A stretch of DNA of 64,000 nt, taken from positions 2,602 to 66,601 of the forward strand of contig CAZOVH010000002.1 in the NCBI GenBank assembly GCA_964583675.1, written 5' to 3'. Source of the stretch: an uncultured Candidatus Saccharibacteria bacterium (GTDB taxonomy: Bacteria; Patescibacteriota; Saccharimonadia; CAILAD01; GCA-016700035). Below the pieces are notes generated by a model. It was not told the origin of the DNA and searched no databases. It saw only the letters and a list, made by a program, of their open reading frames with translations. Positions 1,484 to 23,728 of this stretch are shown here, piece by piece; position 1 is the first letter of the stretch; the number at the start of each line of letters is the position of its first letter. A program made the position numbers and the translations under genes.

Positions 1484-1770
1484 GTTGCTCTCGTAGAGAG
1501 CCAGAACTCCGAAGGAGTTCGCTAAAGTCTCATACGAGATTTTATACAAAGTATTCTCCGTGGGATCACCATGAAAAACGTCCAAGCTCGTCTTGGGCTT
1601 TTTTCATGGTAGTTTTCTCGTGAAAACTGGACTCCGCAGGAGTTCGATAGATCAGTCCACGCACAGGAACTTGTTCCGAGCATGGCCGCAATCTGCACTC
1701 AGTATTCTCCGTGAGATCACCCATGTAAGCGCCGGAAATTAATTCCGACTCTCACATCGGAGAATACTTA
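1484..1770. repeat. tandem diverged repeat (two ~90-125 nt units) built of three hairpins plus conserved AGTATTCTCCGTGRGATCACC(C)ATG box; closing inverted copy CGGAGAATACT
   Basis: Units 1487-1573 and 1610-1725 align; stems differ in sequence but both copies stay perfectly palindromic (GCTCTC/GAGAGC vs GTTTTC/GAAAAC; ACTCCgaaGGAGT vs ACTCCgcaGGAGT). Confidence 0.55.
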
Positions 1771-1777
1771 ATTAAAT

Positions 1778-1820
1778 GAAAAAGACCCCGGTGCCGGACC
1801 CCCGAAGGGGTCCGGTCCGT
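1778..1820 (-). terminator. GC-rich rho-independent terminator for the 1832..2158 gene
   Basis: Minus-strand hairpin CCGGACCCC-TTCG-GGGGTCCGG followed by T-run (AAAAAG on plus strand). Confidence 0.6.
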
Positions 1821-1831
1821 TGGTCGTGGCG

Positions 1832-2158
1832 TCAGCCGAGGCGGCGTTCGCCGTTGACGCTCACAAAGCGGATGTCACCTGAGTGACCTCCGTTCACACC
1901 GATCCGCTCTCCCAACTGGAAGATGCGATCGACGCGAGTGCTCATCACATCGGCGGTGATCTGGCCGAACTTGCGGCTGTTGGTCATCACCGAGACGCCG
2001 ATGATCTGCGACTCGGTCGCCCGGCGCCCCTTGGCGAGGACGAATGTCCAACGCGAGCTCTTGGTGCTGACGGTGATGACATCCCCGTCCTCGAGCGTGC
2101 CGAGGTCGAGCATGGTTGCATTCCGGTTGCCCGGAGCCATGGATGTTTGGGTACTCAT
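1832..2158 (-). CDS. hypothetical protein encoded in GC-rich, GC3-biased insert (likely horizontally acquired)
   Basis: Codons almost all end in G/C (CTC GAC CTC GGC ACG...), unlike flanking genes; own terminator; no family recognised. Confidence 0.5.
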   Translation of the reverse strand: MSTQTSMAPGNRNATMLDLGTLEDGDVITVSTKSSRWTFVLAKGRRATESQIIGVSVMTNSRKFGQITADVMSTRVDRIFQLGERIGVNGGHSGDIRFVSVNGERRLG

Positions 2159-19211: not shown

Positions 19212-19274
19212 ACCGAGAGTATGCCACTCATGCTCGCTTTTTGTTCGCATTGTTTGCTACACTGGTTTTCAGAT

Positions 19275-19320
19275 AAATGAAAAGACCACACCAGTCGAAA
19301 CCAATGTGGACTTTTCATTT
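19275..19320 (+). terminator. terminator-like hairpin AAATGAAAAG...CTTTTCATTT downstream of pth
   Basis: 10-bp outer stem plus inner stem read directly. Confidence 0.45.
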
Positions 19321-19571
19321 ACCCCTTCCATATCACCATAAAGGATTTTGCGGCCGTCACTAAATATTCTATACAGCCGTGACTATGGAAGAGAGCGATC
19401 TGCTAACGCGGTTGAACCTAAAGGAGGGTGAGTTTTAGGATATGGCCCCGCAATTAGCAGATCGCTCGCTTCCAGAACAAAAGGTAAGTTGTTGCGGTAC
19501 GGATGTATACTATCACGTTATGATAATTTTGTCAATAGTATTTGTCAGAGGAATTTAAGTTTACAGAATAT

Positions 19572-20459
19572 ATGACAGATAATGCAAGCACTACTACTAT
19601 GCAAGTAATACAACTCTCTAGCAAGAATTATCCTGCTGATCTCAAAGCTATCTACAGCCCACCTAAAAAGCTCCACATATATGGAGCACTTCCAGTCCAG
19701 CCGATGGTGGCGATTGTTGGCTCCAGAAAACCCACTTCCTATGGAGAGATGGTGGCGTATCGGATAGCTTCAGACCTCGCAAAAGCAGGCGTGTGTATCG
19801 TGAGCGGCTTAGCCTACGGCATTGATAGTATCGTGCATCAGGCGGCGCTCGAAGCTGGCGGTACAACAATTGCGGTGCTCGGATCTGGTATAGACAAACT
19901 CTATCCTGCAGCCCATAAGCCTTTAGCGCGGCAAATAGTTCGGGCGGGCGGCGCGATCATCACCGAATATCCCAACGGAACCCCACCACTCAAACATCAT
20001 TTTCCGGCACGCAATCGTATTATTGCCGGATTATCAGCAGCTACCGTGGTGCCTGAAGCGGATGCAAAATCTGGCTCACTCATTACTGCTCAACTAGCGC
20101 TGGAAGAAAATCGCGTAGTTTGCGCTGTGCCTGGCCCGATTACCAGCGCACGTTCGGCTGGCCCAAATAATCTCCTGAAGGCTGGAGCTGTTGCCACAAC
20201 CTCGGCGGCCGATGTCTGCTCGCTCCTTGGCATCGATGCCGATACAGGCATGCAAAAACATCCTTCTACTACAGAACTGAGTCAATATGCCAAAGACATC
20301 CTCACAGCCCTCCAGTCTGGTGCTGCCACCACAGAAGATTTAGCGGCTTCTACCAAAATTGCCGTTCCAGCTCTCTTGAGTACACTCACACTACTCGAAA
20401 TGCAAAACTATGTACGTAGTTCAAGCGGCAATTCTTGGATGAGTACGATTGAAATTTGA
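19572..20459 (+). CDS. dprA: DNA processing protein DprA (Smf)
   Basis: Rossmann-like core GSRKPTSYGEMVAYRIASDLAKAGVCIVSGLAYGIDSIVHQAALEAGG; track start at 19542 is TTG, first ATG at 19572 preferred. Confidence 0.8.
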   Translation: MTDNASTTTMQVIQLSSKNYPADLKAIYSPPKKLHIYGALPVQPMVAIVGSRKPTSYGEMVAYRIASDLAKAGVCIVSGLAYGIDSIVHQAALEAGGTTIAVLGSGIDKLYPAAHKPLARQIVRAGGAIITEYPNGTPPLKHHFPARNRIIAGLSAATVVPEADAKSGSLITAQLALEENRVVCAVPGPITSARSAGPNNLLKAGAVATTSAADVCSLLGIDADTGMQKHPSTTELSQYAKDILTALQSGAATTEDLAASTKIAVPALLSTLTLLEMQNYVRSSSGNSWMSTIEI

Positions 20460-22503: not shown

Positions 22504-22557
22504 CCCTTCTTTAACACAAGCTTTTTGACGAATCTCCAAAAAAGTCCTCTAGTTTTA

Positions 22558-22586
22558 TTGACCTATCTAACTTGCGATGATATAAT
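22558..22586 (+). promoter_or_regulatory. consensus sigma-70 promoter (TTGACC -17 nt- TATAAT) driving 22631..23728
   Basis: Perfect -35/-10 hexamers with 17-nt spacer read directly; SD AAGAGGGTGAGG precedes ATG at 22631. Confidence 0.6.
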
Positions 22587-22630
22587 ATCTTCCAAGACCA
22601 ATACTTATAGGTTTAAAGAGGGTGAGGAAT

Positions 22631-23728
22631 ATGTCTACTCAAGCTATGACGAAAACTACTACTATTGATGTTCGCCCTCTCGTCGAATCGTTGATCGACG
22701 AGAGTTTGCGTGTACTCAAAAAAGATCGCGATCGCGAAGTTGTGGCCAAGCGCCACGGCCTTAAAACCTACCAACCCCACACTCTGGAGCAAATCGGTAG
22801 TGAGCTTGGCATTACCCGCGAACGCGTTCGCCAGATTGAAAAAGCTGCTTTTCAGAAGATTCGCGAACAAGGTCTCACTGAAAGCGAGCTCCACACCGCT
22901 ATGCTCGACTCAATTCAGGAGACCGGCGGTATCATCCAGCTTGACCGTCTTTTGAGTGCGCTCGAGCTTGATACTAACGAGCGCCCCAATGTCACTTACC
23001 TGGTGCGAATTATGCCGGACCTCGAACTAGTTGAGCAGAACGAAGAGCTGTCACCAGTCGTATCACTCGCTGATCCATACAGCCGCCAAACTGTTATCCA
23101 GCTCCACAGTCAGCTACACGATGCTACCAAGTCTCATGGCAAGCCTGTAAAGTTTGATAAAATCGCTGGCGCCATCGATGGACCACATGCTCGCACCGCG
23201 CTCGAAGAGCTGGCAGTTGCCTCGAAGCTCGTAACCGATCTTGATGGTCATTGGGGCTTGGCTGTGTGGCCAGAGGTAAACCCTCGCAGTATTCGCGATA
23301 AAACCTATCTGGTACTCAAAAAAGCTGGTCGGCCAATGCACTTCACTGAAATTGCCGATAAAATCTCTAAACTCGATGCCAACCCAAAGCAGGTAACCAC
23401 TCAAGCTGTCCACAACGAGCTTATTAAAGACGCCCGTTTTGTGCTGATTGGCCGCGGTATTTACGCTCTCGCCGAATGGGGTTACCAGGCCGGAACTGTT
23501 TCAGATATTATTGAGCAAATCTTGCGTGAAGAAAGCCCACTCACACGTGAAGAAATTATTAAGCGCGTATTAGCTCGTCGTCAGGTAAAAGTTGCCACAA
23601 TTGCCTTAAACCTCCAGGAAAAGCCGCAGTTTGAACGCGTAGGCAAGGGCCTCTATAAGCTGCAGGATGGCTATGTTGCTGAACCACGCAAACGTCGCGG
23701 TCGACCACGCAACAACGCTACTGCGTAA
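22631..23728 (+). CDS. DNA-binding protein: N-terminal sigma-70 region-4-like HTH followed by three HARE-HTH-like winged-helix repeats and a C-terminal AT-hook
   Basis: LEQIGSELGITRERVRQIEKAAFQKIR matches sigma-70 region 4.2; repeats ending GHWGLAVW, GRGIYALAEWGY, GKGLYKL resemble RNAP delta/HARE-HTH; tail RKRRGRPRNN. Confidence 0.55.
   Translation: MSTQAMTKTTTIDVRPLVESLIDESLRVLKKDRDREVVAKRHGLKTYQPHTLEQIGSELGITRERVRQIEKAAFQKIREQGLTESELHTAMLDSIQETGGIIQLDRLLSALELDTNERPNVTYLVRIMPDLELVEQNEELSPVVSLADPYSRQTVIQLHSQLHDATKSHGKPVKFDKIAGAIDGPHARTALEELAVASKLVTDLDGHWGLAVWPEVNPRSIRDKTYLVLKKAGRPMHFTEIADKISKLDANPKQVTTQAVHNELIKDARFVLIGRGIYALAEWGYQAGTVSDIIEQILREESPLTREEIIKRVLARRQVKVATIALNLQEKPQFERVGKGLYKLQDGYVAEPRKRRGRPRNNATA

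Follow-up and report, generated by a model that had tools for sequence, protein, structure and literature searches.

A predicted small RNA gene on the strand opposite dprA in Saccharibacteria, with an apical loop resembling the 16S rRNA anti-Shine–Dalgarno tail

What occupies the 360-nt gap between pth and dprA in the genome of an uncultured Saccharibacteria bacterium? We analyzed a stretch of 64,000 nt around this gap (contig CAZOVH010000002.1; called the window below, with all coordinates counted from its first letter), in which the plus strand carries, in order, rluB-like, dacA-like, der, pth, the gap, dprA, topA, and a Sigma70_r4/HARE-HTH gene. The dprA gene at 19572 matches the Pfam family DNA_processg_A (PF02481, E = 8e-76), and the genomes nearest to the window are those of uncultured Saccharibacteria (TM7). 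A preliminary description of the gap had proposed a hairpin around a Shine–Dalgarno (SD) sequence and a 38-aa open reading frame (ORF), that is, a translated leader or a structured RNA in front of dprA. We found instead that the spacer very probably encodes an independent, structured small RNA gene of ~226 nt, read on the minus strand from 19500 to 19275. It is a new and previously unannotated family within a known kind, the bacterial small RNAs; the RNA is probably abundant, and its unusual traits are the depth of its conservation, a predicted bistable design, and full mimicry of the anti-SD sequence.

Saccharibacteria live as ultra-small epibionts; their genomes measure ~1 Mb or less, with a coding density of ~94%, and genetics has recently become possible in them. 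A noncoding locus of ~360 nt that is conserved above the neighboring essential genes in the sampled relatives must matter. A 2022 preprint on the transcriptome of TM7x notes "no currently validated small RNAs" in that organism. The usable outputs of our analysis are a bounded RNA gene with a structure supported by covariation, an invariant loop resembling the anti-SD sequence, a putative conformational switch, and a candidate target.

Extent and strand of the RNA gene

Relatives of the locus were collected by two routes. DprA homologs at 76–47% identity led to loci L004–L011, and a DNA pattern scan of JGI metagenomes recovered ~20 true homologs without use of gene order; the pattern was loose, with ~100 of 120 matches due to chance, and was filtered via the flanking apical stem. 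The pth–dprA spacer is conserved better than the genes on either side of it. For example, positions 19276–19475 are identical to the window in L001–L003 save for one compensatory double change in the stem of L003 (GCGATC/GATCGC to GCAATC/GATTGC, a G–C to A–U replacement), and this despite a DprA in L003 that is only 71% identical to that of the window. Across 33 loci, in which the identity of DprA goes down to 43% and that of Pth to 34%, the element always sits between a divergent dprA and a convergent pth, and the divergent arrangement toward dprA is kept in L009 and L011 despite insertions on the pth side.

The ends of the RNA are both predicted, the 5' end from the position of a promoter and the 3' end from a terminator:

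19275–19500, minus strand: predicted primary transcript of ~226 nt, starting at G19500 and ending with the U tract of the terminator
19507–19535, minus strand: small-RNA promoter, with a -35 box TTGACA at 19535–19530, a 17-nt spacer, and an extended -10 element TGaTAGTAT with its hexamer at 19512–19507
19275–19320, minus strand: intrinsic terminator from the terminator scan, with the core stem CCACAUUGG/CUGGUGUGG at 19309–19286, followed by UCUUUUCAUUU

The promoter is near consensus (TTGACA-17-TGnTAnnAT), scoring 10/12 plus the TG in the consensus scan. The pattern TTGAC[AT]-17-TAnnnT is present in 24 of the 26 distinct homologs, 19 of which have GTGA in front of it; the sequence of the promoter spacer varies among homologs, and a conserved ACnnnCGT start region lies downstream. 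The homologous predicted transcripts measure 217–269 nt. The terminator differs in sequence in the L008–L011, L022, and L090 lineages and is always a G+C-rich stem with a U tract on the minus strand. With its own promoter and terminator and a convergent pth in most loci, the RNA is by prediction an independent transcription unit; the exception to the absence of a same-strand gene downstream is L011, where a NUDIX gene follows.

The choice of strand is supported by folding as well. The predicted folding energy is -93.6 kcal/mol (z = -8.0) for the minus strand versus -73.7 kcal/mol (z = -4.6) for the plus strand, a difference of 20 kcal/mol, and the long-range helix P4 described below is paired in 97.5% of cells on the minus strand versus 93.1% on the plus strand. 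The G.U pairs in the terminator and in helices P2 and P4 are valid on the minus strand only; P2 alone holds 22 G.U cells, which become A.C mismatches if read on the dprA strand. The promoter scan predicted no plus-strand promoter between the pth terminator and 19542. The RNA therefore lies opposite the dprA strand, has a promoter and a terminator of its own, and is transcribed away from dprA, so it is not a 5' leader of that gene. Of the two readings first offered, the structured RNA stands, and its placement in front of dprA does not.

Secondary structure and alternative pairings

The 12-bp stem from which the preliminary description started (GCGATCTGCTAA at 19395–19406, with the exact reverse complement at 19454–19465) is present and unique in the window. 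It is the middle of a longer hairpin at 19386–19475, with ~25 pairs and an inner 6-bp stem, and with a folding energy of -44.6 kcal/mol (z = -5.9) that was equaled by none of 200 shuffled sequences. That the hairpin lies far beyond chance is due neither to an SD sequence nor to an ORF; it reflects a conserved helix of an RNA whose strand is the opposite one. The whole RNA consists of a variable 5' leader, the long P1 hairpin with its loop, a 3' domain in which P4 encloses P2 and P3, and the terminator; the body measures ~180 nt. Its predicted parts, from 5' to 3', are as follows:

19474–19500, minus strand: 5' leader, variable and pyrimidine-rich, with a C/U patch that pairs with S3 (closing helix P0) in the closed conformer
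19465–19473, minus strand: S1 purine strand, GGAAGCGAG in the window and AAGGGAG in most relatives, which pairs with X and so extends P1
19387–19473, minus strand: P1 long hairpin, composed of outer P1a, inner P1c, an internal loop, the apical stem P1b, and a loop; it holds the 12-bp stem
19420–19432, minus strand: apical loop, CUCACCCUCC (10 nt, 19432–19423) then UUU, unpaired in every predicted fold
19379–19393, minus strand: X pyrimidine strand, CUCUUCCAUAGUCAC, with S1 (conformer A) or S3 (conformer B, as P4) as its partner
19351–19379, minus strand: P2 hairpin, CGGCUGU ... ACGGCCG, with an A/U-rich loop
19336–19344, minus strand: P3 short hairpin, CC..GG in the window, CCC..GGG in most relatives, and CUCU..AGAG in L010
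19323–19335, minus strand: S3, the 3' strand of P4, UGAUAUGGAAGGG, a purine run similar to S1

On an alignment of 23 sequences (A3), RNAalifold picked P1a and the long-range helix P4. MAFFT misaligned P1c, P1b, and P2/P3 between sublineages, both in A3 and in a further alignment (A4), and these helices were therefore scored by anchored extraction. Helices P1, P1c, P2, and P4 covary. In P1a and P4 together, 96.6% of cells are paired and 11 pairs are altered on both sides; none of 500 shuffles reached the observed pairing, the number of both-sided changes, or the covariation score, and pairing drops to 41–48% when the 3' partner is slid by 1–3 columns. Taken singly, P1a is 95.7% paired with five covarying pairs, and P4 is 97.5% paired with six.

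P1c keeps its pairing through the variants GCGG/CCGC, CGCGAG/CUCGCG, GUUGAG/CUCAC, and UUUAAG/CUUAA, the base of the apical stem alternates between C–G and U–A among homologs, and CUGCU/AGCAG within P1 is invariant. Pairs 1–5 of P2 are formed in 22 of 22 sequences through 12 helix variants, and a conserved junction, CAAAAU (19350–19345), follows P2. In S1, AAG is invariant, and alignment columns 4–10 pair with columns 84–90, with columns 4 and 90 covarying (G–C in 10 sequences, U–A in 10). It is worth mentioning that P1a carries a C.A mismatch (19448–19462, minus strand; A3 columns 13/81 and 16/78) in the sublineage of L008, L011, L044, and L106, where relatives have U–A; with this sublineage and a few others, P1a pairs slightly better on the dprA strand (97.6% versus 95.7%). 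The mismatch probably goes back to one inherited change or represents an A+.C wobble.

Strand X has two possible partners, the 5' strand S1 in conformer A and the 3' strand S3 in conformer B. Column 90 covaries both with column 4 and with column 159 (C–G in 13 sequences, A–U in 10), which suggests a conserved capacity to switch between S1–X and X–S3. When the two folds were enforced on 26 full-length RNAs, the conformers differed by -1.0 to +8.2 kcal/mol, and by 2–4 kcal/mol in about half of them. In every lineage, the two states are predicted to have almost the same energy, and each contains the terminator. In the S1–X state, the pyrimidine patch of the leader tends to pair with S3 and to close the molecule. 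The patches of this putative helix P0, picked by eye from the minimum free energy (MFE) folds of the same 26 RNAs, are UUCACCCC/GGGGUGAA in L063, ACACCC/GGGUGU in L028 and L090, UUCCC/GGGAA in L014, and UACC/GGUA in the window.

The apical loop and a possible mode of action

The loop CUCACCCUCC is identical in 33 of 33 homologous loci, where it was itself required by the search patterns, and it stays unpaired in the MFE folds and the constrained folds alike. Its sequence, CUCACCCUCCUUU, corresponds to the usual bacterial 16S rRNA 3' tail, UCACCUCCUUU, with one C inserted. The GGAGG-type motif that had been read as an ideal SD sequence (AAAGGAGGG at 19420–19428) is indeed present in the loop of the 12-bp stem; judged from the sequence, it is the complement of this invariant loop of the RNA. 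As an anti-SD tail with an extra C, the loop should therefore pair with purine-rich ribosome-binding sites (RBSs), and an unpaired C-rich loop complementary to an RBS is the feature that SD-targeting small RNAs have.

The loop was compared with the upstream regions of 81 candidate gene starts in the window, and that of the Sigma70_r4/HARE-HTH gene stood out; this gene lies three genes away from the small RNA and has the RBS AAAGAGGGUGAGGAAU-AUG at 22615–22633 (plus strand). The loop forms a perfect 9-bp duplex with this RBS at 22618–22626, and no other of the 81 starts has such an RBS; the duplex has -18.1 kcal/mol with the loop versus -10.7 kcal/mol with a 16S-type tail, and the resulting difference of -7.4 kcal/mol is a single outlier among the 81 starts, the next best being -2.8 kcal/mol. 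This gene is also the only one among them with GGGUGA upstream. The same RBS recurs in L001, L002, L004, L005, L006, L063, and L091, and the gene is a lead as a candidate, lineage-specific target. Its promoter is strong (TTGACC-17-TGATATAAT, in the region 22556–22633, plus strand), and its true start is the ATG at 22631 rather than the GTG at 22622 given by the ORF tool.

These features describe the RNA gene and suggest a mechanism. As predicted, the extended -10 promoter, of the sigma-70 type and near consensus, drives the RNA divergently from dprA, the terminator facing the 3' end of pth stops it, and the long, rigid P1 hairpin presents the invariant unpaired loop CUCACCCUCC(UUU). This loop copies the 16S anti-SD tail with one extra C and could pair in trans with RBSs of the GAGGGUGAG type, which would then be occluded and out of reach of the 30S subunit. 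As for the structured body, it would stabilize the RNA, serve as a binding site for a protein, or control activity by way of the switch between conformers A and B. We regard a trans-acting RNA whose loop mimics the anti-SD sequence and pairs with RBSs as a tentative proposal, possible but short of an even chance; the explanation as a whole, an RNA gene together with RBS pairing, is the best one that we have and seems to us somewhat better than an even bet.

Several points weigh against this explanation. Small RNAs that act by base pairing do not usually have a body conserved anywhere near this strongly; such conservation, along with that of CUGCU/AGCAG within a helix, would suit a protein partner no less well. 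Complementarity to the loop was looked for at the homologous genes of L010, L034, L085, and L106 and was not found; since the loop stays the same even where target complementarity is missing, its invariance must have another cause than a single mRNA target and speaks for a partner that is itself invariant, for example a protein, rRNA, or the SD class overall. Because all search patterns included the apical loop, any homolog with an altered loop would have escaped them. The energy gaps between the conformers fall inside the error of the folding model. P0 has no fixed paired position, and P3 is short and covaries in one lineage only, so both are tentative, and P1a by itself says nothing about the strand, as its C.A mismatches would be G.U pairs on the other one. 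The function is deduced from the sequence and the predicted structure, and expression is likewise predicted.

Some of the chance matches of the metagenome scan bear on the loop in another way. Those of L041, L096, L121, and L123 resemble, as judged by eye against E. coli, what is presumably the reverse complement of the 23S rRNA of other bacteria. In sense orientation, this presumed 23S region reads AAAGGAGGGUGAGAAUCCCUCC, which holds the exact complement of the small-RNA loop.

Other explanations, known RNA classes, and the surrounding locus

The ORF of the preliminary description exists upstream of dprA:

19442–19558, plus strand: 38-aa ORF, from ATG 19442 to TAA 19558; judged not to be a gene, as it is not conserved and has no Pfam match

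Its surroundings differ slightly from those first reported. GGAGGG precedes the ATG by 13 nt, a long distance for a functional SD sequence (9 nt had been given), the 3' arm of the stem falls in codons 5–8 rather than 4–7, and the stop codon is 13 nt, not 14 nt, before the dprA ATG. More importantly, conservation in relatives, which had been proposed as a check, holds for the stem and fails for the ORF, whose length, frame, and start codon all vary. On the dprA strand, the ORF reaches 38–46 aa in none but the closest relatives (with more than 63 aa in L004); it has just 14 aa in L003 and 4 aa in each of L006, L007, and L063, and its tail in L005 and L036 is unrelated to that of the window. In 19 of the 29 homologous sequences, there is no start codon 3–15 nt after GGAGGG, and the hairpin and loop remain. 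A Pfam search with the 38-aa ORF gave no match, and the 29 sequences contain no conserved ORF on the dprA strand of the spacer. A translated leader or small protein for dprA is thus not borne out.

Other small ORFs have been called nearby. A minus-strand ORF of 40 aa (19318–19196), whose AUG at 19318 sits 3 nt after the SD-like GGAAGGGG within S3, was considered and rejected: it reads across the terminator and past the point where the RNA is predicted to end, and some relatives lack its AUG (UUG in L003, absent from L007 and the L008 group), so that it is probably spurious. Public gene calls in or beside the spacer are found in L004 (2347–2559), L005 (2055–2234), and L007 (2070–2249); these hypothetical ORFs of 70, 59, and 59 aa have no Pfam match, coincide in part with the RNA gene or its flanks, and were probably annotated in error. 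The annotation of the pth–dprA spacer can be corrected accordingly.

Three explanations would keep the locus tied to dprA or to the plus strand. In the one first put forward, a hairpin on the dprA strand sequesters or presents the SD sequence of the 38-aa ORF, whose translation controls dprA. Although the stem, the GGAGG, and an ATG-started ORF ending 13 nt before the dprA ATG all exist here, the ORF shrinks to 4–14 aa in four relatives, and 19 of 29 sequences lack it while keeping the hairpin and loop; the 13-nt spacing, the lack of a predicted plus-strand promoter from the pth terminator to 19542, the G.U pairs, promoter, and terminator that place the RNA on the other strand, and the promoter that dprA seems to have for itself downstream of the element make this model extremely improbable. 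We give as little credence to a type I toxin–antitoxin pair, with the plus-strand small ORF as the toxin and the minus-strand RNA as the antitoxin. The C-terminal stretch of the ORF is hydrophobic (VMIILSIVFV), an antisense RNA with a strong promoter overlaps it, and the hairpin encloses its SD sequence; however, the ORF is not conserved, L003, L005, L006, L007, L036, and L063 have lost its hydrophobic tail or carry a different one, the antisense RNA is conserved well past the overlap with a complex covarying structure of its own, and a single-copy gene in a fixed gene order is unlike mobile toxin–antitoxin loci. A little less remote, and still improbable, is that the act of transcription rather than the RNA matters, the strong minus-strand promoter tuning the weak dprA promoter by competition or supercoiling. 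The divergence from dprA in all 33 loci, even with the pth-side insertions of L009 and L011, and the closeness of the -35 boxes (19535–19530 and 19542–19547) would agree with it, yet it leaves 180 nt of covarying structure and an invariant loop without explanation, and L090 retains the RNA though its dprA appears degraded. Such an effect could also hold in addition to a function of the RNA itself.

A more serious rival to RBS pairing, though in our judgment an unlikely one, is a protein-binding housekeeping RNA, either a divergent 6S-like RNA, in which refolding from A to B frees the protein, or a decoy for a factor of the 16S 3' end. The extreme sequence conservation along the whole body, the invariant CUGCU/AGCAG inside a helix, which suggests contact with a protein, the promoter of consensus strength, which implies abundance, and the presence of a single-copy gene in every lineage examined all speak for it, as does the fact that one candidate mRNA target does not account for the invariant loop. 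Both alternative helices are conserved and the conformers are close in energy, a two-conformer pattern that recalls the rearrangement of 6S RNA induced by its product RNA; in the 6S-like version, conformer A would supply the closing helix, a bubble with a hairpin on its 3' side, and the long terminal stem. On the other hand, the Rfam models for 6S, signal recognition particle (SRP) RNA, RNase P RNA, and transfer-messenger RNA (tmRNA) gave no match at E <= 10, ARAGORN found nothing, and any protein partner is hypothetical. The fold is branched, with P4 enclosing P2 and P3, rather than a simple rod with a large two-sided bubble, its closing helix has only 4–8 bp at a variable position, and the terminal loops of 6S RNAs are normally not conserved in sequence. 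Less likely again, we think, is that the RNA is a bistable mimic of the 16S 3' end, retained by all the Saccharibacteria lineages examined despite their very small genomes, that acts on the translation apparatus rather than on a single mRNA, or the radically reshaped form of a 6S-type RNA otherwise missing from the lineage. Such a mimic might titrate SD sequences genome-wide, or a biogenesis or quality-control factor of the Era, KsgA, or YbeY type that reads the anti-SD tail, and the S1/X/S3 switch would turn it on and off.

Whichever of these functions applies, the RNA gene falls outside the classes that we searched. With Rfam 15 at gathering thresholds, neither the whole window nor 20 metagenome loci gave a match; by E-value, the region and nine divergent homologs returned only spurious sub-threshold microRNA and snoRNA hairpins (for example, MIR7486 with 34.8 bits versus a threshold of 67). 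The 6S, SRP, RNase P, and tmRNA models had no match at E <= 10 in the window or at E <= 5 in the nine divergent loci, and ARAGORN found no tmRNA in the window, its four ordinary tRNAs lying elsewhere and none at the element. SRP RNA, tmRNA, and RNase P RNA were rejected on these grounds, the apical loop being the 10-nt CUCACCCUCC and not a GNAR tetraloop. A leader peptide or attenuator of dprA was discarded given the unconserved ORF, the 13-nt SD spacing, and an RNA on the opposite strand, and so was a riboswitch or 5' leader on the minus strand, where pth downstream is convergent and inspection found no anti-terminator pairing. Neither the stem motif nor the loop motif has a second copy in the 64-kb window, and a search of IMG/VR for the element found none; with a location fixed in 33 loci, this sets aside a REP- or MITE-like repeat, and the IMG/VR result sets aside a phage origin. 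Literature searches found no description of this RNA.

Among known systems, the closest in kind are the Gram-positive small RNAs RsaE/RoxS and the streptococcal csRNAs, whose C-rich loops pair with SD sequences; the csRNAs, which repress comC, are linked to competence too. The RNA described here is likewise a stand-alone gene with its own promoter, an intrinsic terminator, and an unpaired C/U-rich loop complementary to GGAGG-type RBSs. Unlike them, it has no sequence or Rfam match to these families, is 2–3 times longer, and carries the whole anti-SD tail in a single loop rather than several CCC motifs; its body is branched and covarying with two alternative conformers, and its range is a class-level lineage, whereas theirs is a genus or family. 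With 6S RNA it shares a length of ~200 nt, a single-copy gene, a strong promoter that looks constitutive, a conformer that closes the 5' and 3' regions around a long stem, and a conserved capacity, as predicted, to refold into an alternative helix with a released 3' strand. Set beside the 6S rod, conformer A offers a long terminal stem, a structured 3' side, and a closing helix that is short; however, RF00013 and related models give no match, the covarying 3' domain branches where 6S RNA has a central two-sided bubble, very few pairs make up the closing helix, the apical loop does not vary, and the 3' end retains a terminator hairpin.

Two further comparisons are looser. The 5' arm of P1 (19423–19462, minus strand, and the L008 homolog) reads AACCUGC in several lineages and AAUCUGC or GAUCUGC in others; the first form resembles GGGGAACCUGCGG of helix 45 in the 16S rRNA of E. 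coli. Unlike the 16S 3' end, where the 3' strand of helix 45 precedes the anti-SD tail, the motif here lies in a closed loop instead of at a free 3' end and the spacing differs, and the resemblance may be convergence or chance. Like the raiA motif RNA, OLE, HEARO, and ROOL/GOLLD, the RNA was found via conservation and covariation, has several helices and an orphan function, and is restricted in range. It has no homology to them in Rfam 15, is smaller than OLE, ROOL, and GOLLD, and differs from the whole group in its clear promoter and terminator and its fixed genomic neighborhood.

Beside the RNA gene, pth ends in a terminator of its own:

19217–19245, plus strand: pth terminator from the terminator scan, belonging to the neighbor and outside the small RNA

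Its sequence, CATGCTCGCTTTTTGTTCG, is kept in close relatives. The pth side is also where insertions were seen. In L011, a NUDIX hydrolase gene (1579–2097, minus strand in the coordinates of that locus) lies directly downstream of the small-RNA terminator, on the same strand and before pth; its close relative L008 is without a NUDIX gene at this locus, and L009 has ~300 extra nt with a 109-aa ORF at the same position. On the dprA side, L090 (1800–2520) retains the small RNA with only ~400 nt between it and topA. Two ORFs of 64 and 70 aa occur in this space, where tblastn matches just 35 aa of DprA; dprA thus seems degraded there while the RNA is kept, although an assembly artefact is possible.

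In the window, dprA appears to have a weak promoter of its own (TTGTCA-16-CAGAAT, 19542–19569, plus strand), downstream of the small-RNA element. It stands back-to-back with the small-RNA promoter, the -35 boxes at 19542–19547 and 19535–19530 being 6 nt apart. The predicted transcription start of dprA falls at or after the ATG at 19572, and the real start codon may therefore be the ATG at 19599 (MQVIQL...). A start at 19599 would match homologs of 283–286 aa and would leave a short leader without an SD sequence.

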